Virus record (IMG/VR): IMGVR_UViG_3300029305_004950
Span: 125,430 to 189,429 of that record
Length of the DNA: 64,000 nt
Source: a virus
Lineage: Duplodnaviria > Heunggongvirae > Uroviricota > Caudoviricetes
Strand: one strand, 5' to 3'
The position numbers and the translations under genes are program-made. How positions within the stretch are numbered: position 1 is the stretch's first letter; each line of letters starts with the position of its first letter. Positions 12,520 to 53,649 of this stretch are shown piece after piece. The notes beneath the pieces were generated by a model that saw nothing but the letters and a program-made list of their open reading frames with translations, searched no databases and was not told the DNA's origin.

Positions 12520-12714
12520 ATGAATAACTTTAAGGTTAAGGAAATGCAGAATATTCTTAGAAATAATGGTTATGCAAAGAAAAGACATCGTGGATCTCAT
12601 GAAATCTGGTATAATGATGATAAAAATGATACTGTAGTTATTACTAATCGTAAGAAAGGTGTTAATTACTTTACAGCAACTAAAATGATGAAAGAACATT
12701 GTATTGTAAGATAA
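12520..12714 (+). CDS. HicA/YcfA-like small protein (putative mRNA interferase toxin fold)
   Basis: 64 aa; LRNNGYAKKRHRGSHEIW...V.I..RKKGVNYFTATKMMKE matches the HicA pattern (GSH...h....K...tl). Confidence 0.45.
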   Translation: MNNFKVKEMQNILRNNGYAKKRHRGSHEIWYNDDKNDTVVITNRKKGVNYFTATKMMKEHCIVR

Positions 12715-13489: not shown

Positions 13490-15019
13490 ATGGCGACTAA
13501 AAAGAATCTAACATATAACGAAGATAGTATTAAAGTCCAAGAATATCCTGATAATGTAAGATCTAATCCTACAGTCTATATCAGTAGTCTTGGTAAAGAA
13601 GGTAATACGCATCTACTAAGAGAAGTAATTGATAACTCTATTGATGAATTCCTAAATGGTTTTGGTAAAACAATTACAATTGAAATTTCCAATAAAAAAG
13701 GTGTATTTAGAGTAATTGATGAAGGTCGTGGTGTTCCTCCTAAATCTATTGAAAGAGCATTTACTACATTACATGCTTCAGGTAAATTCGATAAAGATAG
13801 TTATAGCACATCAGGTGGTCAGCATGGTCTTGGTAGTACATGTGTTAATGCACTTAGTAAGTATTTCCTTGTCATTACACATGAAGGTGGTCATGAATAC
13901 TCTCAAAGATTTGAATATGGTAAGAAAGTAACTGAACTAAAAGATTTAGGAAAGTCTGATAAGGTAGGTACTATTGTAGAGTTTTGTCCTGATGAATCTG
14001 TAATGGATACATTTGAGATTGACATTGAATCAGTCAAAGATGAATGTAAGATGAAGTCTTTTATCAATAAAGGACTTACTATCATTATTAAGGACATGGA
14101 TGAAAAGAAACAGGCTAAGTATTATCATAAAGATGGTATTGAGGAATACGTACAGTTAAATGCTAAGAAAGCTCTATTTAATCCTATTACATTCTCTACA
14201 TCAACTACTGTTAACAAGGCTAATAAAGAATTGAATGTAGAAATCGATTGTTCCTTTACTTATGATAACTCTACTGATCCTATCAATATTAAATCCTTCT
14301 GTAATTCCATTTATACTAGTGATGGCGGTACTCATGAAACTGGTTTTAAAACAGCTCTTACTAGTTTGATTAAAAAGTATATTGCTGATAATAACCTACT
14401 AACTAAAAAAGATGCAAATCTAGACATTACTGGTGATTCAGTTCAGGAAGGTGTAGTAGCAGTAGTATCTATCAAACATCCTCATCCGATGTATGATCAG
14501 CAGTCTAAGAAAAAGCTTAACTCTACAGAAGTTTCTGGTGCAGTAATGAAAGCAGTTAATGCAGAATTTAGTAAGTGGATTGAAACCCATGCTAAAGAAA
14601 TGAAAGTACTTTGTACTAAAGTAATTGAATCTGCAAAGGCTAACAGTGCTGCTAAGAGAGCTAAAGAACTAGCTAATAAGAAATCTGAAAATGGAATTAC
14701 TGCTGTTTCTGATCTATCAAAATTAGCTAACTGTATTTCTAAGAAACCTGAAGAATGTGAACTGTTTGTAGTTGAGGGTAATTCTGCAAGTTCAAGTGCT
14801 AGAAATGGTAGAGATAAGCAAACTCAGGCTGTTTATGCTCTAAGAGGTAAGATTCTCAATACTAACAATCTAGCTGAAACTAAGATTTTTGAAAATAAGG
14901 AACTATCAGATTTGATTTATATCTTAACTGGTAAGAAAACTGCAATTGGTAAGAATTTCAATGTTGAAGACATGAAGTATCATAAACTGGTAGCCTTGAC
15001 TGATGCTGACGATGACGGT
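13490..15019 (+). CDS. gyrB: type II topoisomerase ATPase subunit (GyrB/ParE-like), exon 1
   Basis: GHKL ATPase motifs EVIDNSIDE, GRGVP, GGQHGLGS; Toprim EGNSASSS and DADDDG. The reading frame hits a stop two codons after the conserved DADxDG motif; the downstream ORF supplies the rest (HIASLILGF...PPLY). Confidence 0.88.
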
Positions 15020-16310
15020 AAATGACACATTAAGTCTGCATCAGTGAGAAATTTTCTAACAATACATTAGTATTAATGTTAGGAGGTTTCATTCAAATGA
15101 AAAATGAAAAAGAAACTAAAGAAAGATATGCTTCTGGTATTGAAAATTGTAAAAAACAAGCTCAAAATCTTAAACAAAAAGCATCTGAAAAATTTTTAAG
15201 TAAAGTTTACGAACAAGTTGGTGATGATTATACTTTTCTGGAAACTTATGTAACGAGTAAAACTAAACTCTGGGTAATACATAATGTTTGTGGACATAAG
15301 TATAGAGTAACTCCAAATGAGTTTACTTCTCATAAAAGACGTTGTCCAAACTGTGCAAATAAAAAAAGAGTACTTAATACTGGAATAAAACCTCATACAT
15401 TAGAATCTATTATTGAAAGTGTAAAAGAATTATCTAATGACGAATATGAGGTAGTTAGTAATGAGTATGAAAATAATAAAGAAAAAATTTGGGTTAGACA
15501 TAAAACATGTAGTTATTCATACCTTGTTCGTTATAATGACTTTCAGCAAGGATATAGATGTCCTTTATGTGCTGACATGAATAAAAGTCAGAATAATTCT
15601 AAACCAATACAGGATATTAAAAGTGTTCTAGATTTTAATAAAATTGAGTATGAATCAGAAGTGTCATTTGAAGAATGTGTAGACAAACGTTTTCTTCCAT
15701 TTGATATATTGGTTTATACTGATAAAGTCAATGATGAATACTTTTTAATTGAGTATGATGGACAACAACATTCTGATCCTAATGCACAATTTGGAGGAAC
15801 TAAAGAAGAAAGACTTATTAGATTTGAGCTAACTCAAAAACATGACACTATAAAAAATGCTTTTTGTGAAGAAAACAGTATAAAACTTTATAGAATTTCT
15901 TATAAAGAAGATTTGATGAGCAAACTAAGAAGTATATTGGAAGAAAATAATCTAATTTGACTTGCAGTGAATGCCGTCTAAAAACCTAGTTAACTGCGGG
16001 AAACTATCAATAAACACTATTTACTAAACTAAGATAGTAATATACTTAGTGGCAATGGGTAACTCCAAAGATATAGTAAAAAGAATAGTGTTTGATACAA
16101 TCGACGCAACGAAGTATCCTACATTTAGTAAAAGATAGGATATGAGTTCAACGACTATCGAAACCAACTAACTTAATGTTAGTAATAAGGTAAGTTGAAA
16201 TACTTACACGAAGGGAGTAGAGTAGGGAAATGTAAATTACAAAGTACCGAAAAGCTAGGCTATACTAATTTAGTATAGAAAATATAGTCTAAATTATGCA
16301 AAGTAATTTG
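15020..16310 (+). mobile_element. group I self-splicing intron with homing-endonuclease ORF in the P1 loop
   Basis: Internal guide GCCGTC (15973-15978) complements the exon-1 end GACGGU with a terminal U-G pair. P-like element AACTGCGGGAAAC (~15992), R element GTTCAACGACTA (16146-16157), S element AAAATATAGTCT (~16279). The intron ends in G (16310), giving an in-frame join DADDDG|LHIASLILGF. Confidence 0.75.
15097..15960 (+). CDS. intron-encoded homing endonuclease candidate: two Zn-ribbon-like modules plus a PD-(D/E)xK (Vsr/DUF559-like) nuclease domain
   Basis: ATG at 15097 with TAGGAGG RBS. Duplicated W..H..C..Y.V....F....RCP.CA modules; C-terminal RFLPFDILVY...LIEYDGQQH resembles the restriction-endonuclease-like fold core. 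Confidence 0.55.
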   Translation: MKNEKETKERYASGIENCKKQAQNLKQKASEKFLSKVYEQVGDDYTFLETYVTSKTKLWVIHNVCGHKYRVTPNEFTSHKRRCPNCANKKRVLNTGIKPHTLESIIESVKELSNDEYEVVSNEYENNKEKIWVRHKTCSYSYLVRYNDFQQGYRCPLCADMNKSQNNSKPIQDIKSVLDFNKIEYESEVSFEECVDKRFLPFDILVYTDKVNDEYFLIEYDGQQHSDPNAQFGGTKEERLIRFELTQKHDTIKNAFCEENSIKLYRISYKEDLMSKLRSILEENNLI

Positions 16311-17135
16311 CTTCACATTGCAAGCCTTATCTTAGGATTTGTATATAGACATGCTAAACCCATTTTGGAAAAAGGTTACATGTATATTGCAATGCCTCCT
16401 CTTTATTCTATCATTGAAAGAAATAAGAAACGTTATTTCTTAAATCAAGAGGAATATGATGCATATATTGAGGAAAAGATTTTTGAAAACTATGTATTTA
16501 GTTGTAATGAGATAGGTTTAAATAAGACTAAAGCTAAAACCATTCTTAAGAATTTTGAAACTTACAAAAACAAAGTAAGTGAACTATCTACTAGTACAGG
16601 TATCAATATGTATTTAATTGATGATGTATGTGATTATTTACGTACTAATGAAAATGCAACAAGTAAGGATATTGTGAATTTATTAAAACAGATTGGTGAT
16701 TTTGAATTCTTTAAGAATGATGAAGGAAATTCTGAGATTAATGGTCTTTATGATAATAGCTTTGTAAATGCAGTAATTAAGGATTTAGTAAAGTCTGCTA
16801 AAAAAGCTAAGAAGATTCTAGAAGATCTTAGTATTCCTGAAGAAGTATTCATCAATGATTATCATCTATCAATTAAGAACTATCAAGACATGTATAACAA
16901 GGTTACACCTAAGTCCAGAAGTCGATTCAAAGGCTTGGGAGAAATGGATGCTAATGAACTTTGGGAAACTACTCTTGATCCTTCAGTTAGAAACATTATG
17001 CAAGTTGTACTATCAGATGAAGAAAAGACAGATGATACTATGGATACACTACTAAATTCTAATAGTAAGTATGCAGACAAACGTAAAGTATTCTTAATGA
17101 AAAATCAGCAAAAGATTAAGGAATTAGAAATCTAA
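16311..17135 (+). CDS. gyrB: type II topoisomerase subunit B, exon 2 (C-terminal)
   Basis: HIASLILGFVYRH...YMYIAMPPLY... matches the GyrB region following DADVDG(S)HI; the KGLGEMDANELWETTLDP block matches the GyrB C-terminus. Confidence 0.85.
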   Translation, partial: LHIASLILGFVYRHAKPILEKGYMYIAMPPLYSIIERNKKRYFLNQEEYDAYIEEKIFENYVFSCNEIGLNKTKAKTILKNFETYKNKVSELSTSTGINMYLIDDVCDYLRTNENATSKDIVNLLKQIGDFEFFKNDEGNSEINGLYDNSFVNAVIKDLVKSAKKAKKILEDLSIPEEVFINDYHLSIKNYQDMYNKVTPKSRSRFKGLGEMDANELWETTLDPSVRNIMQVVLSDEEKTDDTMDTLLNSNSKYADKRKVFLMKNQQKIKELEI

Positions 17136-17146
17136 CTAATACAAAA

Positions 17147-17182
17147 AGAAAGTATCTTATTTTAGATACTTTCTTTTTTTGT
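17147..17182 (+). terminator. rho-independent terminator
   Basis: AAAGAAAGTATCT-loop-AGATACTTTCTTT plus T-run. Confidence 0.6.
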
Positions 17183-17242
17183 TTTAATAGGATTTATAAC
17201 ATTTCTATAATGAAAACTATTTTTAAGGAGTGAAATTACTAT

Positions 17243-17593
17243 ATGGCACAAGTTACTATAGATGCAACTCAGGATTACAAAGTTACTGACATTAGAAAAA
17301 ACGTCAATAATAAGTATGATACTACTATTAAGATGCTTAAGAAGTGGACTATGGAAAACTTCTATTTCAATAACAATGTAGTTCATTATCTACATCCAGA
17401 AGCAGCTTACACTACTCAGATTGATAAATCCATTAGATGTAATGAGGTTGTTTATAAGAAGTCTGAATTCGATACCCCTCTGTCTCATATGATGTACATG
17501 TTCATTGTTATTGGTAAAACAATGGAAGAAGATGAGAGAATTGAAGCTATTGATGCTTTATGTAAGTCAGTTGAGGATGACTCTGTTGTTTGA
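17243..17593 (+). CDS. hypothetical protein
   Basis: 116-aa ORF, AAGGAG RBS. Confidence 0.5.
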   Translation: MAQVTIDATQDYKVTDIRKNVNNKYDTTIKMLKKWTMENFYFNNNVVHYLHPEAAYTTQIDKSIRCNEVVYKKSEFDTPLSHMMYMFIVIGKTMEEDERIEAIDALCKSVEDDSVV

Positions 17594-17722
17594 CTACCAA
17601 TGTTTAGAAAGAATCTAGGTTCAGGAAAACAAAGAAAATTTTGGTAATTTTCTAACTTTCTTTTTAACTATATATAATAAACCTGTCATAAAAATCAAAC
17701 ATTTTTAAGGAGGACATTAGTT

Positions 17723-18160
17723 ATGTATAGTTTTGGTAAGGAAGTAAGAGATCTAAAAGAAGCAGAAAAAGTTACGATTGATCTAATTGAAAATGGTAAG
17801 TTTAATGAATTTTTAGAAAAAACAAACATTGACAAAGACTTTTTAATTAGTAAGATTGAAGTGGCAGAATGTTTTACATTAGGAATTGACTATGATATCT
17901 GTCTAGAAGATTGCTTTAATCCAGAAACTCAGCAGTCGATTATTGATGAAATCAAACAGCGAGAAGGCTATGCTGACAATTCTTTAATTGTTGGAGATTG
18001 TTCTGTATATCTAGAAGATTCTGATAAGATGCTTTTTGGTTATTTCCTATGTAGTGATGTTTTCTCTAATACCAATACTGATAGCATGCTTCTACTATCT
18101 GTAGGTTTTGCTCTAGGAGAAGATATTGCCAATGCAACTAAGCAGTTTGTAACTTTATAA
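17723..18160 (+). CDS. hypothetical protein
   Basis: 145-aa ORF, AAGGAGG RBS. Confidence 0.5.
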   Translation: MYSFGKEVRDLKEAEKVTIDLIENGKFNEFLEKTNIDKDFLISKIEVAECFTLGIDYDICLEDCFNPETQQSIIDEIKQREGYADNSLIVGDCSVYLEDSDKMLFGYFLCSDVFSNTNTDSMLLLSVGFALGEDIANATKQFVTL

Positions 18161-18170
18161 AAACACTAAA

Positions 18171-18212
18171 AAGAGGATGTTTTATTCATTAAAACATCCT
18201 CTTTATTTTGTT
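18171..18212 (+). terminator. rho-independent terminator
   Basis: AAGAGGATGTTTTA-loop-TAAAACATCCTCTT plus T-rich tail. Confidence 0.55.
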
Positions 18213-18229
18213 TTAGAGGAGAGTTAATC

Positions 18230-18487
18230 ATGGAAAGCTTAAAGAATGTAATAGAAAATGAGCATATTTTTATAGTAGAAGTTGAAGAAGTTTTACAAAA
18301 GTTAGTTGCTATTAAAGCAGATAGTAAAGAAGAAGCATTAAAAAGAGCTAAAGAAAAATACAAAAATTGTGAACTTATCTTAAATGAAGAGGATTTTAAA
18401 GAAACTAGCTTTAAGATTTATGAATACAATGATCCTAGAGAAATCATAGAACTAGTAATCACAGCTTTAGCTAATAGAACTTGTTAG
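18230..18487 (+). CDS. hypothetical protein
   Basis: 85-aa ORF, AGAGGAG RBS. Confidence 0.5.
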   Translation: MESLKNVIENEHIFIVEVEEVLQKLVAIKADSKEEALKRAKEKYKNCELILNEEDFKETSFKIYEYNDPREIIELVITALANRTC

Positions 18488-18504
18488 AAAGGACTAATGA
18501 TGAA

Positions 18505-19530
18505 ATGACTATTGAAGAAATCAAAAATATGGTTAATGGTGAATCATACGATTTTCTAAGAACTAATCCACATCTTAAGGATAGAATCATTTTTCTTACA
18601 TTAGGTGGTAGCTATGCCTATGGTACAAATAATGAAAATTCAGATGTAGATGTTCGTGGTTGTGCTCTTAATAGTGTTAATGATATCCTCGGTATGTCAA
18701 ATTTTGAACAGGTAGTAAATACAACAACAGATACGACAATCTATAGTTTTAATAAATTGATTAAACTCTTAATCAGCTGCAATCCTAACACCATTGAATT
18801 ACTTGGTTGTAAACCAGAACACTATTTTTACATTACAGATATTGGTAAAGAACTAATAGACAATAGAAAAATTTTTCTTTCTAAAAAAGCAGTTGAGGAT
18901 TCTTTTGGTGGATATGCAACTCAGCAGCTTCGTCGTTTAGAAAATGCAATAGCTAGAGATAAACTATCACAGGAAGATAATGAAAGACACATTAGAAATT
19001 CCATGCAAAGATCTTTAAATCACTTTATTGATAAATATGGAATTTCTGATGGTAATGGTGTTGAACTCTTTATAGATAAAAGTAATCGTGATGATTTAGA
19101 TTGTGAAATTTTCTGTAAGATTTACCTTGACAAAATTCCAGCAAGAGATTTTACTGTTATGTTAAACTCTCTATCAAATGTAATTAGTAGTTATGGAAAA
19201 CTAAATCATAGAAATCATAAGAAAGATGATGCACATCTTAATAAACATGCAATGCATCTAATTAGACTGTATCTAATGGCTATTGACATTCTAGAAAAAG
19301 AAGAGATCAATACTTATAGAGAAAATGATATAGAATTTCTATTAAGTATTCGTAATGGAAGATATCAAAATGAAGATGGTACTTACCATAAAGATTTCTT
19401 TGATATTGTATCTGATTATGAAAAACGTTTAGTATATGCTAAAGAAAATTCTAGTCTTCCTATGGAGCCAAATATGGAACTTATTGAAGAATTTACAATA
19501 GATGTAAATAGGAGGTCATTAGATGTATAA
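18505..19530 (+). CDS. Pol-beta-superfamily nucleotidyltransferase (GS...D.D motif) with C-terminal helical domain
   Basis: LTLGGSYAYGTNNENSDVDVRG is the hG[GS]x9-13DhD signature (as in OAS/cGAS-like and minimal NTases). ATG at 18505 with AAAGGA RBS preferred over the track's TTG at 18481. Stop overlaps the start of the CCA enzyme gene. Confidence 0.55.
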   Translation: MTIEEIKNMVNGESYDFLRTNPHLKDRIIFLTLGGSYAYGTNNENSDVDVRGCALNSVNDILGMSNFEQVVNTTTDTTIYSFNKLIKLLISCNPNTIELLGCKPEHYFYITDIGKELIDNRKIFLSKKAVEDSFGGYATQQLRRLENAIARDKLSQEDNERHIRNSMQRSLNHFIDKYGISDGNGVELFIDKSNRDDLDCEIFCKIYLDKIPARDFTVMLNSLSNVISSYGKLNHRNHKKDDAHLNKHAMHLIRLYLMAIDILEKEEINTYRENDIEFLLSIRNGRYQNEDGTYHKDFFDIVSDYEKRLVYAKENSSLPMEPNMELIEEFTIDVNRRSLDV

Positions 19531-20866
19531 TGTCTCTTTCAATATTCCAGATAATGTGAATGTTATCTTAGATACTTTACATGATAATGGATATGAAGCA
19601 TATATAGTCGGTGGATGTGTTAGAGATAGTCTGTTAGGATTACAACCAAAAGATTGGGATATTTGTACTTCAGCACTTCCACCACAAATACTAGAAGTTT
19701 TTAATGATAAGCGTATAATTGAAACAGGTTTAAAACATGGAACAGTTACTATAGTTCTAGATGACGAACAGTATGAGATTACAACATATCGTACTGATGG
19801 AAACTATTCTGATAATCGACATCCAGATTCAGTAACATTTGTTAGTAACCTTAAAGAAGATCTTGCAAGAAGAGATTTTACTATAAACGCTATGGCTTAT
19901 AACAAACAAGATGGTTTGATTGACTATTTTAATGGTTATAAGGATTTAAAGAATGGTATAATTTCTTGTGTTGGAGATGCTAATGAACGTTTTAATGAAG
20001 ATGCGTTACGTATTATGAGAGCTTTACGTTTTTCTTCTAGATATGAAATTCCAATTGCAGAATCCACACAAGAAGCTATTCATAAAAATAAGGATTTACT
20101 TAAAAATATTGCCATTGAACGCATTAATAGCGAATTATGTAAATTGTTACTTGGTTATGGTGGATCCTATATTTTAGCAAACTATAAAGATGTGATTACA
20201 ACTATTATTCCAGAATTAAAACCTTGTATTGGATTTAATCAAAATAATCGTTATCATGAATACGATGTTTATGATCATATCAGACATGCAGTATACAATT
20301 ATGGAGGTTCGGATTTAGTAGTAATTATATCACTCTTACTTCATGATATTGGCAAACCTCATTGTTATACTGAAGACTGTAACGGAGGACATTTTTATGG
20401 TCATGGAGTAGTAAGTCATGATATAGCAGAGAAAGTATTAGACAATTTAAGATTTGATAATAAAACAAAACATGATGTTCTTGAATTAGTATTATACCAT
20501 GATTCAACTATTGAACCAACACCAAAAACAGTACGTAGATGGTTAAATAAAATTGGTGAAAAACAATTTTTAAGACTTCTTGATATTCGTGAAGCAGATA
20601 TGTTAGCACACTCCAAAGATACACAGAAGTCTAGATTAGAAAGAAATGATAAACTTAGAAAAATTTTAGCTGAAATAATCCAATCTAATCAATGTTTTAC
20701 TATAAAGGACTTAGCAATTAATGGTAAAGACATTATTGCTATGGGTGTACCTGAAGGTAAACGTATAGGTGAAATACTAAATACAGTCCTTAATGAAGTT
20801 ATTAATGAAACTATTGTAAATGAAAGAAAATTTTTATTAGATTACGTATATTATAATCTAGTATAG
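19523..20866 (+). CDS. cca: CCA-adding tRNA nucleotidyltransferase (class II NTase head + HD domain)
   Basis: YIVGGCVRDSLLGLQPKDWDICT (GGxVRD...D.D) and HD motif LLHDIGKP. Confidence 0.8.
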   Translation: MYNVSFNIPDNVNVILDTLHDNGYEAYIVGGCVRDSLLGLQPKDWDICTSALPPQILEVFNDKRIIETGLKHGTVTIVLDDEQYEITTYRTDGNYSDNRHPDSVTFVSNLKEDLARRDFTINAMAYNKQDGLIDYFNGYKDLKNGIISCVGDANERFNEDALRIMRALRFSSRYEIPIAESTQEAIHKNKDLLKNIAIERINSELCKLLLGYGGSYILANYKDVITTIIPELKPCIGFNQNNRYHEYDVYDHIRHAVYNYGGSDLVVIISLLLHDIGKPHCYTEDCNGGHFYGHGVVSHDIAEKVLDNLRFDNKTKHDVLELVLYHDSTIEPTPKTVRRWLNKIGEKQFLRLLDIREADMLAHSKDTQKSRLERNDKLRKILAEIIQSNQCFTIKDLAINGKDIIAMGVPEGKRIGEILNTVLNEVINETIVNERKFLLDYVYYNLV

Positions 20867-20880
20867 AAGGAGAACACATA

Positions 20881-23800
20881 ATGGCACAGAATGTAATTCA
20901 AAAGGATATTGTTGATATTCAAAAAGACAATATGCTTCAGTATATGATGTCTCTAATGTATGATAGAGCGATTCCTGATATTAGAGATGGATTAAAACCA
21001 GTACAGAAATTTATCCTTTGGAGTTGTTACAGTTCAGGTTTCTTTCCAAATAAACCCCATGTAAAGTGTGCTAAGATTGCTGGTGATGTTATTGCTAACT
21101 TCCATCCACATTCACTAGATGCAGCTTATGAAGCATTGTGTAGACTTGCTCAGACTCATTCTATGAATATTCCATTAATTGATTTTCATGGTGCATGTGG
21201 TTCTATTGATGGATCAGGCGCAGCAGCTCATAGATATTGTGTGACTGGTGATACCTTAATTAGTCTACCAAATGGTAAATTAAAAAGAATTGATGAACTA
21301 ATTGAAAATTCTAATGATGATTCAACTATGGATGTAGATTTTGAAGTATTAGATTTTAAAAATAATCCAGTACATGTTTCTAAATTCTTTAATTCTGGAA
21401 AACATGATATAATCAAGATTAAAACCAGTTCTGGTTGTACTATTAGAGGTAGTTATAATCATCCTATCTTGTGTTTATATAAAAATCCTACTGATGGTCT
21501 ACCAGAATTCAGATGGACAACTTTAGATAAAATTGAAACTGGATGTTATGCTGTTATAGCATCTAAATTCAATAATTCTTTTAATGAAACTATAAGTGAA
21601 GAAGAAAAGCTTAAAGCAATTTTCTTTGGTGGAATGGTTTCTGAAGGAGGTTTATCTAAAAATCAGAGATACTATAGAGTAAGTTTCTCCAATCAAGATA
21701 ATGAATACTATAATCTAGTGGAATCTGGATATAAAGTATATCTTGAAGAGAATAATCTAAGTAATTTGAATATTCGTATTAATCCAAATGCTCGTGGTGG
21801 AGTTAAAGAATTTTGTACTGAAGACAAAAATCTTCATAATTTAGTTAAAGAACAAATTGGTGAAGATGCTCATAATAAACAGATTCCTCCCTATGTTCTA
21901 AACTCTAATTTAGAAATTCAAAGATGGTTTTTAAAGGCACTTTTTGAAGGAGATGGAGGAGTAACATGTCGTTTAGATAAAAGAAGAAAAGATAATGTTA
22001 CTGGACATGTATTTTATTCTACTTCTTCAACAAAACTTTTGAATGAATTAAAAATTCTATTAATGAATTTTGGTATTAGAACTAAAGTTACTAAAGACAG
22101 ATCTAATTTTAAACTTACAATTTATTCTTTAACTGACATGAAAATTTTTAAAGAAAAAATAGGATTTTTAAGTGATAGAAAAAATAAAGTATTGAATGAA
22201 TTAGTAGAAAATAAAGAAATACAAATTACTAAGTCTTATGGTGTTTCTTCTTCAGATAAAATTCCATATCTTGCCGAATTCATTAGAAATAATAAACTTA
22301 GAAATACACATTATTTAAAGTCTCATAGCCTAAATTGTAAACAAGATATAGATAAACATAATGATGTAATTAAAGATTCTTTGAGTTATGAAGAATATTT
22401 TAAGCTTATGAGAAAACTTGAAGTTTTAGATTTATACCATTATGAAGAAATTATTGAAGTTGAAAGACTACCAGAAGAAGTAGTATATTCAATTAAAGTA
22501 GATTCTAATGATCATAGTTTTATTAGTAATGGTTTTATTAGTCATAATACTGAGGCAAAACTTAGTAAATATGGATTAGATATTCTTAGTGAAATCGATA
22601 AGGATGCTGTTGATTTTGAAAAGAACTATGATGTAACTAAAGATCAACCAACTGTTTTACCTGCAGTAATTCCTAATATCCTATTGAATTCTTCAATGGG
22701 TATTGCAGGTGGTTATGCTTCTTCAATTCCTCCACATAACATCAAGGATGTATGTAATACTGTATGTGAACTAATTGATAATCCTAATATGTCAGTTCAA
22801 GATGTAGCTAAGAAACTAGTTCCTGACTTTCCTACAGGTGGTATCTTATGTTCTAAGAAGGAAATTGAAAAAGCTTACATTACTGGTCAGGGTTCAGTAA
22901 AACTAAGAGGTAGAGCAACTATCAATAGAAATAAGAATAACACATCAGAAATTGTTATTACTGAAATTCCATTTATGACTACAATTGGTCCTCGTATGAG
23001 TGGCACATCTACTAATACTGAGGGTGGTTTGATTAATTCCATTGTAGCTAAGATTAAAGATGGTACAATTGATGGAATTAAGGATATTCACGATATTTCT
23101 GATAAGAATGGTCTATGTATTAAAGTTTTTATCAAGAAAGATTATGACCCTGATGTTATTCTAAATCAGTTATACAAGTTCACTCAGTTAGAATCTACTT
23201 TTAAGATCATTCTAGTTTGTAAGAATGGTAATTTCTTTAAGGTTTATAACATCAAGGAAATTCTAACTGAATGGATTGAATTCCGTGTATCTACTATTAG
23301 ACGTATCATTACACATGATATCAAGAAAGCTAAGTATCGTGAACATATTCTAGAAGGTCTATTAAAAGCATTAACTGATATCGATACTGTTATTAGTATC
23401 ATTAAGAAAGCTAATGGAAGAGCTGATGCTAAAGTAAAGTTAGTTAGGAAATATGGATTTACTGATTTACAGGTTGAAGCTATTCTTGACATGAAACTTT
23501 CTCAGTTAAACTCTCTAGATGGAAAGAAGCTAGAAGAAGAAAAACTAAGTAAGCAAAAAGAAATTCTAGAACTAAAAGAGAATTGGAAAGAATCCAATAT
23601 CTATGAAAGAATTAAGAAAGAACAGAAAGAATTTGCTAAAAAATATGGTAGTGAAAGAAAGACTACTGTAGAAGAGATTGATACTGATATTACTACTGAA
23701 GACATTATTGCTGATGAAGATACTTTGATTGTCATTACTCAGGGTAATTACATTAAGCGTATTTCAAATGAGTTTAGAACTCAGAAACGTGGTACTCAGG

Positions 23801-24696
23801 GTATTTCTATTGGTGATAACTCTATCACAGAAATGTTCTCTGCTTCTACTAAGGATCATCTACTATGTTTTACTAATACTGCCAGAGTCTATGATTTAAA
23901 AGCTTATGACATTAAAGAATCTAAGGATCTTAAAGCTAAGGGTTTAAGAATTGAAAATTATCTAAATCTAAAAGAAAATGAAACAGTTACTAACATTCTA
24001 TGTATCAATAATACACAGATGAATGATAATGAATCCTTCCTAGTTTTCGCTACTAAGAATGGTATGATTAAGAAAACTAAGTTAGAAGAATTCAATAACA
24101 TTCGTTCTACTGGTATTATTGCTTTGATGTTAAAGTCTGGTGATGAACTAGTTTCTGTAAAGTATATTGATACTAGTAAACCTATGCAAGATATCTTGAT
24201 TTCTACTAAAAATGCTCAGACAGTTAGATATGATCATGAAGAAATCAAAGAATTAGGTAGAAATACCTATGGTGTAATTGGTATTAATCTAGAAAATGAT
24301 GACCGTATTACAGATATGTGTATCATTGAAGATGACGAACAACTAATCTTCTTTGCTACTAAAAATGGTTTAGGTAAAACTATTCGTATTACTGATAATG
24401 TAGAAAAAGTTGATCCCAATACTAAAGAAAAAGTAATCATCAATGATGGTTTTCCTAGACTAAAACGCTCATCCAACATTAAAGGCAGACTATGCATGAA
24501 ACTAAAAGAAAATGACGAATTAGTTTCAATGGTAGCTATCAATAATGTAAATGACGAACTAATGATTGTTACTGATAGCAAACTATTAGTAGTCAATACT
24601 GAAGAATTCAAAGAACCTTTAAAGAGACCTACTTATGGTAAGAAATTAGTTAGTTTGACTAATGAAGACTATGTAAGAAAGGTGATTCTAAAGTGA
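20881..24696 (+). CDS. gyrA: type II topoisomerase subunit A (GyrA/ParC-like) interrupted by an in-frame intein
   Basis: The extein reads ...GSGAAAHRY|TEAKLSKYGLD, matching GyrA AAMRYTEARL around the catalytic Tyr. A C-terminal beta-pinwheel region is present. Extein is about 834 aa after removing the 437-aa intein. Confidence 0.88.
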   Translation: MAQNVIQKDIVDIQKDNMLQYMMSLMYDRAIPDIRDGLKPVQKFILWSCYSSGFFPNKPHVKCAKIAGDVIANFHPHSLDAAYEALCRLAQTHSMNIPLIDFHGACGSIDGSGAAAHRYCVTGDTLISLPNGKLKRIDELIENSNDDSTMDVDFEVLDFKNNPVHVSKFFNSGKHDIIKIKTSSGCTIRGSYNHPILCLYKNPTDGLPEFRWTTLDKIETGCYAVIASKFNNSFNETISEEEKLKAIFFGGMVSEGGLSKNQRYYRVSFSNQDNEYYNLVESGYKVYLEENNLSNLNIRINPNARGGVKEFCTEDKNLHNLVKEQIGEDAHNKQIPPYVLNSNLEIQRWFLKALFEGDGGVTCRLDKRRKDNVTGHVFYSTSSTKLLNELKILLMNFGIRTKVTKDRSNFKLTIYSLTDMKIFKEKIGFLSDRKNKVLNELVENKEIQITKSYGVSSSDKIPYLAEFIRNNKLRNTHYLKSHSLNCKQDIDKHNDVIKDSLSYEEYFKLMRKLEVLDLYHYEEIIEVERLPEEVVYSIKVDSNDHSFISNGFISHNTEAKLSKYGLDILSEIDKDAVDFEKNYDVTKDQPTVLPAVIPNILLNSSMGIAGGYASSIPPHNIKDVCNTVCELIDNPNMSVQDVAKKLVPDFPTGGILCSKKEIEKAYITGQGSVKLRGRATINRNKNNTSEIVITEIPFMTTIGPRMSGTSTNTEGGLINSIVAKIKDGTIDGIKDIHDISDKNGLCIKVFIKKDYDPDVILNQLYKFTQLESTFKIILVCKNGNFFKVYNIKEILTEWIEFRVSTIRRIITHDIKKAKYREHILEGLLKALTDIDTVISIIKKANGRADAKVKLVRKYGFTDLQVEAILDMKLSQLNSLDGKKLEEEKLSKQKEILELKENWKESNIYERIKKEQKEFAKKYGSERKTTVEEIDTDITTEDIIADEDTLIVITQGNYIKRISNEFRTQKRGTQGISIGDNSITEMFSASTKDHLLCFTNTARVYDLKAYDIKESKDLKAKGLRIENYLNLKENETVTNILCINNTQMNDNESFLVFATKNGMIKKTKLEEFNNIRSTGIIALMLKSGDELVSVKYIDTSKPMQDILISTKNAQTVRYDHEEIKELGRNTYGVIGINLENDDRITDMCIIEDDEQLIFFATKNGLGKTIRITDNVEKVDPNTKEKVIINDGFPRLKRSSNIKGRLCMKLKENDELVSMVAINNVNDELMIVTDSKLLVVNTEEFKEPLKRPTYGKKLVSLTNEDYVRKVILK
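21238..22548 (+). mobile_element. intein (437 aa) with LAGLIDADG homing-endonuclease domain at the GyrA catalytic-Tyr site
   Basis: Starts with Cys (CVTGDTLISLPNG) and ends ...SHN before +1 Thr. Blocks resemble the Mycobacterium GyrA intein (CITGDALVALPEG ... NHPLLCL ... HAFITNGFVSHN). Two LAGLIDADG motifs: FFGGMVSEGG and LFEGDGGV. Confidence 0.85.
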
Positions 24697-51189: not shown

Positions 51190-53649
51190 ATGAATCTATA
51201 TAATATATACACTGAATCTGCTTTAGTAAAAGCTGAACGTGATAAGTTAGCAGATTCTGATTTTGGTTTACCAAAAACTAGACAATTTCCATTACATGAT
51301 GCCGAACATGTAAGAAAAGCTATACAAATGTTTGGTCATTGTCCAGAGGAACATAGAAAAGAATTAGCGGAAAATATTTATAAGGCAGCTAAAAAATTTT
51401 CTGTAGAAATATCAGAGAAATCTCTAGTTTTCAAATATTTATCTAAATCACAACAGTCTGATATTCTAAATACTAATAGAAAACAAAAAAAGTTAAGTGA
51501 GAATAATCCATTTCTAAACTTTGTAGATTTCTATCAGTTACCTTTAACTGAAGGAAACATTGAAAAGTATAGCAAATACTACTCTAAACTAAACTGTATT
51601 CAGGAAAGTAAAGATAGAAAAGGAACATTACTAATTGATAGTAAAGATCAAGTAGCTGGATTTATTCAAGTTGATACTAAATCTGGTTATCTAAACGACC
51701 TTGAAGTTAATCCAATTTATACTAATCAAGGTATTGGTAGTAAGTTACTAAATACTAATACTGGTAAGTTAGCTACTAGAGTCAGTATTAAATCTGATAA
51801 TGACAAAACTATCAATTTTTTTAAGAATAATGGATTTGAAGTAGTTTCTGATAGTAACTATAAAACCATAATGAAACGAAAACTAGCTATTAATGAAGAT
51901 TCTGGATTTATGTTATCTGGAAATACTTCAAAACTAGATATGCAAAGTATTATGGATGAGAAATTAATAGATTCTATAGATCAATTAGAAAATTCTAATG
52001 ATATAGTAACTCAATTAGAAAATTACTTAGATTGTTTAAAAGAAACATCTGTAGCTGGATTAGCTTGTGTAGCTCCATTGGCTGGGAAAACTATAAGAAA
52101 TCCATATGTAAACAATACTGTTAGACCAGCTACTAAAGATTGTCCTAACATGTTTGACTATGATGAATTCTATGAGCCTGAAGAAAGTAATCTTACTTAT
52201 TCCGAAGACTTCTATTCATCTAAGTTAGACACTAGTGAACCAGTTGATGTAGTTAAAAATACTGCTGATAGAGATAAGAATTCTTCTAGTGTTATACAAA
52301 AACCTCAAGCTATGATGGAAAATAATAAAGATATTGATAGCAATATATTTACAAGAGGAGAATTTAAAAAATATAGAAAAGATGATTTAACAGAAAATAG
52401 AGGAGAAATAATAGTTAATGAAGATGATGGTATCTTAAGTGCTATTATTTGGGATATCATTAAGTTCATAGTAAAGTTACCATTCAAAATCGGTAAGTTT
52501 ATTGCAAGAAGAATTAAGAATTCTGATTCTCATAAAATCGAAAAAGCAATTAAAGAATATAGAAAAGCTTATGATAGTTGTTTAGATATTTCTAGAATAG
52601 CTAAAAACCATAAAGAAATTTCTTTACAACAGTTATGTAAGGAACTAGGTGCATCTTCTAGTGAAGTAAAACATATCAAAACAACTGGTATTATAAAAGT
52701 AACTGCATGGTATAAAGGTAAGAATCTAATTTCTTATTTCATAGAAATTCTAAAGAATAAAGATTCCACTCAATATGAATACGTATTAGGTATAGTAGAC
52801 GGAGATTATACTAAAGATCCTACTAAAACCTTATTATGTGCAATTATGGAGTATACTACTAATTCTTATGGTAAATACTTAGATAGACTAAATACTATCT
52901 TAAGAAAACGTGGTAAAAAGCTTTTGGAAGATGTAGTACTATTTGAAGATATAGATGCTACTGCTGCACCAAATAGTAAAGTAGTTGATTACAAAGACCA
53001 ATCTACAGATGTAATTACTGGTATCGATCGTTATACTAACCATAAAGATGAAAATGGTTGTTATTATATAAAACTAAATGCTAATGAATATGAAGATCAA
53101 GTACAAAAGAGTCTAATTCTGCCTTATATTAATGAGGATATGTTTATTACTTCAGATTTACATCTAAATCATAAGAATCGTAACTCAGCTAACTTAGCTA
53201 ATATTCTAGTTAGTGAGATTAATGCTAAAGTTTCAGTAGATGGTGTATTAATGATTCTTGGTGATCTAGGTAATAAAGGTGATGCTAATCAAAAAGAATA
53301 TCTTAAATCTTTTATACAGAGACTTAATGTAAGTAAGAAAATCTTAATACTTGGTAATCATGATAACTTATCATTAAAAGATTACTACGATATGGGATTT
53401 ACCTTTGTTTCCGATAGATTAGAAAATGATGATTACATTTTCTCTCATTGTCCTGAAGATCCAAAAAATAAGATCAATGTTCATGGACATATTCATGATG
53501 AAAAAGAATATTGGAACATACCTGCTGAAGGGCATATCAATGTTTATATCAATTCTCATAATTATAAAGTTCATACATTAAGAGAATACTTAAAGTTTTA
53601 TAAACAAGGTAGATATAAAGGTAAATCTGTAAAAAAGAAATTTAATTGA
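51190..53649 (+). CDS. multidomain protein: GNAT acetyltransferase-like domain + C-terminal calcineurin-like metallophosphoesterase
   Basis: GNAT motif A NQGIGSKLL near residue 190. MPP motifs ITSDLHLNH (D.H), MILGDLGNKGD (GD..D), ILILGNHD (GNHD), HGHIH (GH.H) in the last ~200 aa. Confidence 0.6.
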   Translation: MNLYNIYTESALVKAERDKLADSDFGLPKTRQFPLHDAEHVRKAIQMFGHCPEEHRKELAENIYKAAKKFSVEISEKSLVFKYLSKSQQSDILNTNRKQKKLSENNPFLNFVDFYQLPLTEGNIEKYSKYYSKLNCIQESKDRKGTLLIDSKDQVAGFIQVDTKSGYLNDLEVNPIYTNQGIGSKLLNTNTGKLATRVSIKSDNDKTINFFKNNGFEVVSDSNYKTIMKRKLAINEDSGFMLSGNTSKLDMQSIMDEKLIDSIDQLENSNDIVTQLENYLDCLKETSVAGLACVAPLAGKTIRNPYVNNTVRPATKDCPNMFDYDEFYEPEESNLTYSEDFYSSKLDTSEPVDVVKNTADRDKNSSSVIQKPQAMMENNKDIDSNIFTRGEFKKYRKDDLTENRGEIIVNEDDGILSAIIWDIIKFIVKLPFKIGKFIARRIKNSDSHKIEKAIKEYRKAYDSCLDISRIAKNHKEISLQQLCKELGASSSEVKHIKTTGIIKVTAWYKGKNLISYFIEILKNKDSTQYEYVLGIVDGDYTKDPTKTLLCAIMEYTTNSYGKYLDRLNTILRKRGKKLLEDVVLFEDIDATAAPNSKVVDYKDQSTDVITGIDRYTNHKDENGCYYIKLNANEYEDQVQKSLILPYINEDMFITSDLHLNHKNRNSANLANILVSEINAKVSVDGVLMILGDLGNKGDANQKEYLKSFIQRLNVSKKILILGNHDNLSLKDYYDMGFTFVSDRLENDDYIFSHCPEDPKNKINVHGHIHDEKEYWNIPAEGHINVYINSHNYKVHTLREYLKFYKQGRYKGKSVKKKFN

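Follow-up and report, generated by a model that had tools for sequence, protein, structure and literature searches.

The stretch of phage DNA analysed here (64 kb, hereafter the window) carries two overlapping genes on its plus strand, to which all feature coordinates refer. The first specifies an RlaP-family Pol-beta RNA nucleotidyltransferase (18505..19530, 341 amino acids, long form) and the second a class II CCA-adding tRNA nucleotidyltransferase with an HD domain (19523..20866, 447 amino acids, assigned by NCBIfam and Pfam). Directly 5′ of the RlaP gene lies a gene for a DpnD/PcfM-like small protein of 85 amino acids (18230..18487; PF14207, E = 4.1e-13), and 14 nt 3′ of the CCA gene begins gyrA with a LAGLIDADG intein (20881..24696). 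The phage itself is large and of the gut/rumen type, and has a G+C content of 29%; its relatives are found among gut and rumen Clostridia, in their phages as well as in their genomes. Megablast of positions 17000–22000 against GenBank phages gave no match. The phage is represented in metagenomes only.

The reading frame of the RlaP gene is mechanically open from a TTG at 18481 (349 amino acids), but the ATG at 18505 is the supported start because homologues begin with MTIE(Q/E)IK there and the gene calls of JGI and ENA independently arrive at 341 amino acids; a weak GGA is found 11 nt upstream of this ATG. The protein matches PF10127 with 61.7 bits (cut-off 23, E = 1.1e-16), with the match restricted to the N-terminal half (profile positions 18–141 of 249), and PHROG 388 over its full length (E = 1.3e-53). 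A homologue search returned 8000 scored hits at E ≤ 1e-5 and, when clustered at 50% identity, 2553 clusters at E ≤ 1e-10 and 5430 clusters at E ≤ 0.001; all 240 homologues among the matches listed carry a precomputed PF10127 annotation. The nucleotidyltransferase signature G35-S36-x10-D47-V48-D49 (18607..18651), which was read from the sequence and is predicted to bind metal and NTP, had already been recognised in the earlier note and is confirmed here, together with a third catalytic carboxylate, D76 (18730..18732), that is invariant in three homologue alignments (A1, A3 and A4). G35, S36, D49 and D76 are invariant in both A1 (14 sequences) and A3 (53 sequences), and D47 is fully conserved in A1 and almost fully in A3.

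The helical C-domain that the earlier note had read into this protein is borne out in an AF2 model (pLDDT 84.8), which predicts an alpha/beta head, the helical domain and a terminal helix (residues 324–338). The crystal structure of PfRlaP consists of an N-terminal NTase domain and a C-terminal helical domain, with a terminal helix packing onto the NTase domain (bioRxiv 10.64898/2025.12.29.696909). In the long form, a helical/beta-hairpin insertion of ~90 amino acids (residues ~128–234) is present in addition to what is found in the homologues of Bacillus phages Bcp1 and G. Previously described as a minimal nucleotidyltransferase of no named family, the product of the first gene is, judged by its sequence, an RlaP-family Pol-beta nucleotidyltransferase with an intact catalytic triad.

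CCA enzymes rebuild the 3′-terminal CCA of tRNAs, and the product of the second gene scores as an equivalog of this group (NCBIfam NF009814 “CCA tRNA nucleotidyltransferase”, 314.6 bits, cut-off 290), in agreement with the full CCA tRNA nucleotidyltransferase proposed before. Its Pfam domains are a PolyA_pol head (E = 1.4e-40), PolyA_pol_RNAbd, HD and tRNA_NucTran2_2. The motifs GGCVRD, D44xD46, RRDFT and E159-D160-xx-R163 are invariant, and the head and neck align with the CCA enzymes of P. halocryophilus and G. stearothermophilus (E = 1e-59). The flexible-loop region aligns without gaps with bona fide CCA-adding enzymes; the equivalog score and the intact loop suggest that the enzyme adds the complete CCA. 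Its HD phosphohydrolase-type domain (residues 259–361, 20297..20605) is detected by Pfam HD with 28.4 bits (cut-off 22), and the metal ligands H245, H274-D275, H326-D327 and D359 do not vary among 10 homologues. Overall identity of the enzyme among phage relatives is only 40–66%. In E. coli, the HD domain of the CCA enzyme reportedly acts as a 2′,3′-cyclic phosphodiesterase and phosphatase (Yakunin et al. 2004), and the window's enzyme, with its conserved ligands, may have a similar end-healing activity. By these motif and profile matches, the second gene encodes a class II CCA-adding enzyme that is complete and whose HD domain is conserved. Neither frame is open by chance, given the conserved catalytic residues and the thousands of homologues.

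The RlaP stop codon (TAA, 19528–19530) and the CCA start codon (ATG at 19523) lie within an overlap of 8 nt, ATGTATAA (19523..19530), as the stop/start overlap noticed earlier had implied, and a Shine-Dalgarno sequence AGGAGG (19510..19515) is embedded in the last RlaP codons, 7 nt before the ATG. This geometry suggests that translation of the CCA gene is coupled to that of RlaP. A consensus scan placed a terminator-like hairpin 5′ of the transcription unit (18170..18204) and found no terminator-like site between it and 25066; therefore, the DpnD-like gene, RlaP, CCA and gyrA are probably co-transcribed, with gyrA probably sharing the transcript of the pair. The DpnD/PcfM-like gene was found in none of the related loci and is not kept with the pair elsewhere.

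The pairing recurs widely. Of the 41 RlaP lineages (85% clusters) from viral contigs, 19 have the CCA gene directly 3′ of RlaP and four more have it within ~1.3 kb; among the 74 assessable loci from Clostridia genomes and MAGs, it adjoins RlaP in 29 and lies within 5 kb in eight more. Conversely, among the 80 nearest viral CCA loci RlaP is directly upstream in 41 and elsewhere within 4 kb in 23. The link is frequent but not obligatory: in ~44% of the RlaP lineages sampled, no CCA gene lies within 2–5 kb, solo RlaP genes are present on Clostridium chromosomes, and among the nearest cultured-phage homologues no CCA gene adjoins RlaP in the Clostridioides phages AR1086-1 and pCD1602_4 or in the Bacillus phages Bcp1 and G, nor does one in two fecal contigs. 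Where the two genes meet, 34 of 37 distinct junctions overlap, 18 of the 37 have the same 8-nt geometry, and most related junctions have a GGAGG-type Shine-Dalgarno sequence at the same position. No fusion of RlaP and CCA was seen among the best 150 cluster representatives, where a single protein of 649 amino acids carries an unrelated extension. An 89-amino-acid conserved ORF lying between the two genes in some loci was considered as S4-like but found no Pfam support.

Around the pair, the genomic context changes. At least 13 different immediate flank contexts were counted, the G+C content of the host loci ranges from 26% to 58%, and none of the window's other genes is common to the relatives of the pair. 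Mobile islands of Clostridia carry the pair too, with integrases, an ABC-type ATPase and MazF toxins as neighbours. The distance matrices of RlaP and CCA are correlated with a Mantel r of 0.93 (reached in 0 of 999 permutations), a value that partly mirrors shared phage phylogeny. Both the order of RlaP before CCA and the overlap at their junction are found repeatedly, and are inherited together, in many divergent phages and mobile islands. Frequent further neighbours in relatives are a Thg1-like 5′-end polymerase (PF04446) and a calcineurin-like metallophosphoesterase; Macro is found as well, and occasionally an RNA ligase (PF09414). The window contains no RNA ligase, Pnkp, Thg1, metallophosphoesterase or cysteine desulfurase according to Pfam and PHROG searches of its larger ORFs and tblastn with the relatives' proteins, and no tRNA gene or Rfam family at gathering thresholds.

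RlaP enzymes attach one or two NMPs, whatever the base, to the 3′-OH of RNA, prefer the broken end of cleaved tRNA, depend on Mn2+ and are inactive on DNA and on 3′-phosphate ends; this biochemistry was obtained with Pseudomonas enzymes (bioRxiv 10.64898/2025.12.29.696909), which belong to a different RlaP cluster from the window's long form. In jumbo phages, RlaP and CCA enzymes have been grouped as RNA-end-restoring NTases (Iyer et al. 2021, PMC7824862). We propose, with a probability of about 0.6, that the pair is a co-transcribed module, coupled in translation, by which a large phage repairs or maintains tRNA ends. In the infected cell, host RNases, toxins or ordinary turnover would leave the ends of tRNAs trimmed or phosphorylated. 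The HD domain, in relatives together with a separate metallophosphoesterase, would regenerate the 3′-OH, RlaP would then replace one or two missing nucleotides, and the CCA enzyme would restore the CCA so that the tRNA becomes chargeable again. The partner in this tight coupling, a CCA enzyme and not a ligase, hints at the acceptor 3′ end as a substrate common to both; it is speculative that RlaP restores the discriminator position ahead of CCA addition. Where relatives also have genes for a Thg1-like enzyme and an RNA ligase, their RlaP could just as well act in repair of the anticodon loop.

Repair of the anticodon loop is indeed the role that has been put forward for RlaP (bioRxiv 10.64898/2025.12.29.696909; PMC7824862). 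Transferred to the window, RlaP would refill the 5′ half of tRNAs damaged by RloC-type enzymes and a ligase encoded elsewhere in the genome would seal them; the CCA gene would merely be grouped with RlaP in an island for general tRNA maintenance, the two enzymes having no substrate end in common. In the closest relatives (72% identity) an Rnl2-type RNA ligase (PF09414) is encoded 5–8 kb upstream of the pair, eight loci (L008, L040/L041, L061, L078, L230, L307 and L308) have ligase homologues close to it, and since the phage contig extends to up to 320 kb, a ligase could lie outside the window. Against this, no ligase was detected in the 64-kb window by Pfam and PHROG searches of its larger ORFs or by tblastn with the ligase of the relatives, and the invariant partner with overlapping frames across lineages is the CCA enzyme, so that we regard the ligase-dependent account as unlikely. 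We find it more improbable still that the pair serves housekeeping maturation only, with CCA being added to phage tRNAs that lack it and RlaP acting as an auxiliary processing or quality-control NTase outside any conflict with host defence. Phage CCA genes are commonly counted among tRNA-metabolism genes, an encoded CCA is missing from 28 of the 49 distinct phage tRNA genes of related loci, and tRNA gene arrays are found within 5–6 kb of the pair in several loci. However, the window has no tRNA gene, and hosts with tRNA genes lacking an encoded CCA already require a CCA enzyme of their own. Neither the presence of the pair on bacterial mobile islands nor its company of Thg1-like, phosphoesterase and ligase repair genes in relatives fits pure housekeeping.

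Two further readings concern RlaP as an agent of attack or of signalling. In the former, RlaP would extend the 3′ ends of tRNAs or other RNAs of the host in the manner of MenT/AbiEii-type toxins and halt host translation, while the CCA enzyme guards the tRNAs needed by the phage. When RlaP is given total E. coli RNA, tRNAs and rRNAs of full length become labelled, with little NTP specificity, and its action on ordinarily cleaved tRNA would lower the amount of active tRNA (bioRxiv 10.64898/2025.12.29.696909); toxin-antitoxin genes also adjoin the pair in some loci. We nevertheless judge this use very improbable, as the PADLOC models of AbiEii and MenT gave no hits to RlaP and the solo chromosomal RlaP genes of Clostridium stand without an obvious antidote. 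Moreover, CCA enzymes are not known to strip extra 3′ nucleotides. Hardly credible at all is a nucleotide second-messenger synthase or sponge (CD-NTase/cGAS-like, anti-CBASS), which the earlier note had offered beside tRNA repair, or an aminoglycoside/lincosamide nucleotidyltransferase, the assignment it had set against its own proposal. Whereas the repair half of that proposal is supported, its synthase or sponge half is not. Profile and structure comparisons with the CD-NTase, MNT/AbiEii, ANT and Lnu families gave no significant match. The resemblance stays at superfamily level: the head fold is that of Pol-beta, and ANT(4′), LinB and the Hailong HalB NTase turn up as distant matches in structure. 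The protein falls outside the ANT and Lnu profiles, and these families, MNT/AbiEii and the CD-NTase or sponge reading were rejected by profile and fold scores; the MntA model reached 15.9 bits (cut-off 60), confined to the GS...DxD stretch. For CD-NTases, PADLOC returned no hit and CdnC appeared in Foldseek at rank 47 with a probability of 0.28. PADLOC's two sub-threshold hits were to PDC-S09, a candidate family (E = 0.006–0.008, 20–28 residues, again in the GS...DxD stretch), and a sequence search of PDB chains returned no close solved structure, the sole match being an MNT antitoxin (E = 0.19).

Within the tRNA-end repair that we favour, a doubtful but specific possibility is that RlaP and the HD-CCA enzyme make up a ligase-independent pathway for the acceptor 3′ end, which would act as a mobile countermeasure to defences or toxins that trim or block acceptor ends. 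The HD domain would heal the phosphorylated end, RlaP would restore the discriminator and perhaps position 72, and the CCA enzyme would add CCA, with the Thg1-like enzyme of relatives repairing the opposite 5′ strand. Such a cassette would be common to phages and bacterial islands of Clostridia and directed at a class of defence not yet characterised; no host defence acting by acceptor-end trimming was identified here.

The RlaP family is large, and its activity was first described in late 2025; the recurrent coupled RlaP→CCA(HD) cassette points to a concrete partner and substrate for it, namely tRNA 3′ ends with 3′-OH chemistry, while supplying abundant natural variants from phages of gut Clostridia. 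If the counter-defence reading is true, tRNA-end damage beyond the anticodon is a significant battleground in conflicts between Clostridia and their phages; if the pair is housekeeping only, the gain is one of routine annotation, from “hypothetical/nucleotidyltransferase” to RlaP. Both enzyme families are already known, and the new element is their coupled pairing, which appears to be undescribed in the literature searched, a scope that did not include the family-naming paper (Burroughs & Aravind 2016).

The window's RlaP shares with known members PF10127, the G[GS]...DxD motif with a third Asp, the predicted order of NTase head and helical C-domain, the occurrence in large phages and the link to RNA repair. 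The association with RNA ligases, from which the name RlaP derives and which is not universal in the family, is not seen among the window's larger ORFs. Unlike RlaP in operons with RtcB or other RNA ligases, the window's RlaP is coupled to a CCA-adding enzyme; the 3′-OH product of RlaP is incompatible with RtcB, its namesake ligase (bioRxiv 10.64898/2025.12.29.696909). The CCA enzyme has the head and neck motifs and the equivalog-level score of bacterial class II enzymes (1MIV of G. stearothermophilus, 6IBP of P. halocryophilus) and, like E. coli Cca, an HD domain with conserved metal ligands, although the model of the E. coli-type multifunctional enzyme (NF008137) reaches only 110 bits on it (cut-off 451). 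It differs from the bacterial enzymes in being phage-encoded and in having its start codon within the RlaP gene.

As a putative system, the pair resembles T4 Pnkp/Rnl1, Pnkp/Hen1, RtcAB (with or without RlaP) and the jumbo-phage toolkits (PMC7824862) in combining end healing and nucleotide restoration so that function is regained, and the families of these toolkits (RlaP, CCA, Thg1, phosphoesterase and ligase) are also present in relatives of the window's pair. In contrast to T4 Pnkp/Rnl1-type systems, sealing and kinase parts are absent from the window and the conserved core consists of just two genes, RlaP followed by CCA, whose frames overlap; unlike known repair systems, this unit moves among unrelated genomic contexts. 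A counterpart exists in the Vequintavirinae (rV5-like), where Erwinia phage pEp_SNUABM_01 encodes a tRNA nucleotidyltransferase (gp171) and an RlaP-like NTase (gp163), with a “hydrolase” between them and ~28% identity to the window's proteins. As in the window, both genes are on the same strand, in one early-gene region, but they are separated by 2.2 kb and seven small genes, with the CCA gene first and no overlap, whereas in the window RlaP leads and the two frames interlock.

The overlap of two plus-strand ORFs described in the earlier note is present in the sequence: gene 1 (18505–19530) ends with a TAA at 19528–19530, 8 nt into gene 2 (19523–20866; 447 aa), whose ATG at 19523 is preceded at a distance of 7 nt by the Shine–Dalgarno motif AGGAGG (19510–19515, +). 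The gene 1 frame is open from a TTG at 18481 (+), and its start was placed at the ATG at 18505 because the N-termini of homologues match this position and the JGI and ENA annotations, made independently, both give 341 aa. The surrounding DNA is A+T-rich (29% G+C) and phage-like in gene content, encoding split gyrB, intein-bearing gyrA, ribonucleotide reductase, ClpP, an SF1 helicase, CHAP/SH3 lysins and a tail protein. As a scan of the window sequence found no terminator-like hairpin between 18204 and 25066, the two genes are probably co-transcribed with the DpnD-like gene before them and gyrA after them. The former (18230–18487), directly 5′ of gene 1, encodes an 85-aa DpnD/PcfM-like protein (PF14207, E 4e-13); no related locus carries such a gene with the pair.

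On profile evidence, gene 1 is a divergent new member of the RlaP family with an intact active site. It matches Pfam PF10127 (“RlaP, RNA repair pathway DNA polymerase beta family”; 61.7 bits, cut-off 23) over the N-terminal half of the model only, and along its entire length it matches PHROG 388 (“nucleotidyltransferase”; E 1.3e-53); all 240 gene 1 homologues among the matches listed carry precomputed PF10127 annotations. The expected GS-x10-DVD signature was found as G35-S36-x10-D47-V-D49, with D76 as a further invariant Asp, and the AlphaFold2 model (pLDDT 84.8, pTM 0.73) combines an alpha/beta nucleotidyltransferase (NTase) head with the helical C-domain that the note had proposed. Residues ~128–234 of the model form a lower-confidence insertion of two long helices and a beta-hairpin. 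Gene 2, rightly read earlier as a full CCA tRNA nucleotidyltransferase, is predicted to be a complete class II CCA-adding enzyme of conventional type with an HD domain: it scores 314.6 bits against NF009814 (cut-off 290), contains the Pfam domains PolyA_pol (head), PolyA_pol_RNAbd, HD and tRNA_NucTran2_2, and aligns in head and neck to solved CCA enzymes at E 1e-59, without gaps in the flexible-loop region. Across ten phage homologues, neither its catalytic residues nor its HD metal ligands vary.

The reading frames overlap, with a strong Shine–Dalgarno motif inside gene 1, and the linkage of the two genes is conserved and co-inherited. Scanning IMG/VR with the gene 1 protein and with an alignment yielded 135 loci encoding RlaP at 50–71% identity, most of which have a CCA gene directly 3′ at a spacing of −7 to +30 nt. 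After collapsing loci at 85% RlaP identity, 19 viral lineages have an adjacent CCA gene, four have one on the same strand within ~1.3 kb, and 18 have none within 2–5 kb. Seen from the CCA side, 41 of the 80 nearest viral loci carry RlaP directly 5′ and 23 elsewhere within 4 kb (none in 13; three truncated). Overlap occurs at 34 of 37 distinct junctions, by 8 nt in 18 and otherwise by 4, 11, 35–38 or 80 nt, usually with GGAGG within the RlaP 3′ end. Pairwise identities of RlaP and CCA enzymes are correlated among 96 distinct pairs (Mantel r 0.93, reached by 0 of 999 permutations), to which shared phage ancestry contributes. No RlaP–CCA fusion was found among the best 150 RlaP cluster representatives.

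In one-genome-per-species data, almost all bacterial relatives belong to Clostridia (Oscillospiraceae, Lachnospiraceae, Anaerocolumna and others). The CCA gene is adjacent at 29 of these loci, within 5 kb at eight and absent at 37; six loci are truncated. Genes for Tn916-type integrases, an AAA_21/AAA_15 ATPase and a MazF toxin lie around the pair in Anaerocolumna jejuensis and Colidextribacter, and RlaP stands alone on a Clostridium chromosome. The immediate flanks of the pair represent at least 13 different contexts, no other window gene recurs near it in the related loci compared, and the G+C content of pair-carrying loci ranges from 26 to 58%, while in the window the pair matches local composition. 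We infer that the RlaP–CCA pairing is a conserved, co-inherited mobile unit in phages and islands of Clostridia.

The inserts in the four spaced lineages are HNH-AP2 homing endonucleases or a conserved 89-aa ORF. This ORF (MFLNVVIGKPLV...KKRLYVIVGE) separates RlaP from CCA in several lineages (L089, L093, L094, L096, L099 and L104, for example L094 2980–3249; L numbers denote loci with homologues outside the window), and HNH-AP2 endonucleases occupy the same place in L096, L104 and L112. The ORF has no Pfam match; an S4-like RNA-binding fold is our guess. A frameshift splits the called CCA gene into two ORFs in some contigs, and in L306 the Thg1-like gene as well (L144 2375–3717; L306 11016–12377 and 12566–13325), which may reflect assembly error or gene decay.

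Other genes with a bearing on tRNAs or RNA ends often lie before or after the pair in relatives. A Thg1-like 3′–5′ polymerase gene lies directly 3′ of CCA in the closest ones, a 190-aa calcineurin-like phosphoesterase and a class V aminotransferase (cysteine desulfurase type) are among the neighbours, and some loci have an Rnl2-type RNA ligase 5–8 kb 5′. A further group has NAMPT, Macro and NAD synthase genes directly 5′. In one phage lineage (L045–L051 and L060), the NAMPT/NAPRTase-like, Macro-domain (weak match) and NAD-synthase-like genes immediately before the pair place an NAD-salvage set beside the tRNA-repair set. None of these neighbours, and no tRNA gene, occurs in the 64-kb window; because an identical RlaP is present on contigs of up to 320 kb, part of the phage genome lies beyond it. 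Several related loci have tRNA arrays near the pair, where 28 of 49 distinct tRNA genes lack an encoded CCA. One related phage contig encodes a UUA-anticodon tRNA of ochre suppressor type (L122 229–301), a hint that stop codons are reassigned or suppressed in its lineage. Toxin genes of the MazF/PemK endoribonuclease type are found no more than a few kb from the pair, both in the largest phage cluster (L015–L039, e.g. L019 12317–12823) and in the Colidextribacter island (L191 9043–9639), and an ABC-type AAA_21/AAA_15 ATPase gene is directly 5′ of it in A. jejuensis (L200). In the nearest cultured phage, Clostridioides phage AR1086-1 (L001, 220–831), the RlaP homologue (48% identity) adjoins an amidoligase-like gene and has a KptA RNA 2′-phosphotransferase gene ~5 kb away and no CCA enzyme nearby.

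Within the window, both gyrase subunit genes have been invaded by selfish elements, given an intein in gyrA and an interrupted gyrB. The 1,271-aa GyrA (20881–24696) contains an intein with a LAGLIDADG endonuclease domain, based on precomputed Pfam Intein_splicing and LAGLIDADG_3 matches to the identical gene in contig L142. The split gyrB (13490–17135) breaks off inside the TOPRIM motif (...DADDDGK; part one, 13490–15025) and resumes with ...HIASLILGF (part two, 16296–17135); the 294-aa ORF between the two parts (15076–15960) has a faint DUF4379 zinc-ribbon match and probably encodes a homing endonuclease. A group I intron model of Rfam also matches weakly there (15926–16313; 18.8 bits, E 0.05), below the gathering score of 50. 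Elsewhere, a 64-aa HicA-toxin-like ORF (12520–12714, +) is recognised through PF07927 on the identical L142 gene, and an 819-aa protein (51190–53649) has N-terminal DUF6582 and GNAT acetyltransferase domains and a remainder without family match.

The RlaP family takes its name from a genomic link to RNA ligases. Phage T4 NrdC.11 is among its members according to a December 2025 preprint (bioRxiv 10.64898/2025.12.29.696909). In that preprint, two Pseudomonas RlaPs, built of an NTase head and a helical domain, added one or two NMPs to RNA 3′-OH ends from any NTP or dATP, preferring Mn2+ and the 5′ half of an anticodon-cleaved tRNA mimic; DNA, proteins and 3′-phosphate ends were not substrates, and aminoacylation of a tRNA missing a nucleotide could be partly restored (bioRxiv 10.64898/2025.12.29.696909). 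By analogy with such family members, gene 1 would add 1–2 nt to RNA 3′-OH ends and gene 2 would synthesise CCA. We speculate that their shared target is the acceptor end, which is favoured because the constant partner of RlaP is the CCA enzyme, not a ligase, and because a Thg1-like 5′-end repair enzyme often follows. The co-produced enzymes would act on tRNAs with trimmed or blocked ends: the HD domain, or a separate phosphoesterase in relatives, would regenerate the 3′-OH, RlaP would fill in one or two nucleotides, and the CCA enzyme would then complete the end. Yakunin et al. in 2004 reportedly described such end-healing activity for the HD domain of E. coli Cca.

The classical model, in which RlaP fills in the anticodon loop before ligation, is viable wherever a ligase is present, as in the loci with an Rnl2-type gene. 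Less likely is pure housekeeping of phage tRNAs, a reading that concerns the arrays with CCA-less genes in relatives; a toxin-like use of RlaP ranks behind it, and last comes a signalling or antibiotic-NTase function, the former of which the earlier note had set beside tRNA 3′-end repair.

Phage carriage of such enzymes for RNA repair is a published idea. In a 2021 survey of jumbo phages, RlaP was the commonest of the RNA-end-restoring NTases and tracked RNA ligases; the CCA-adding enzyme came next, and Thg1 was sporadic (PMC7824862). Neither enzyme, nor its occurrence in large phages, is thus new, and the locus will not surprise a specialist. The literature searched, the 2016 RlaP-defining paper aside, makes no mention of a recurrent, probably translationally coupled RlaP–CCA cassette or of its distribution among phages and islands of Clostridia, and the pairing provides a concrete handle on the physiological partner and substrate of RlaP. 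Compared with known phages, gene 1 differs from the RlaP homologues of Bacillus phages Bcp1 and G, which lack the ~128–234 insertion, and the tight coupling contrasts with the looser arrangement in Vequintavirinae, where the RlaP and CCA genes lie 2.2 kb apart.
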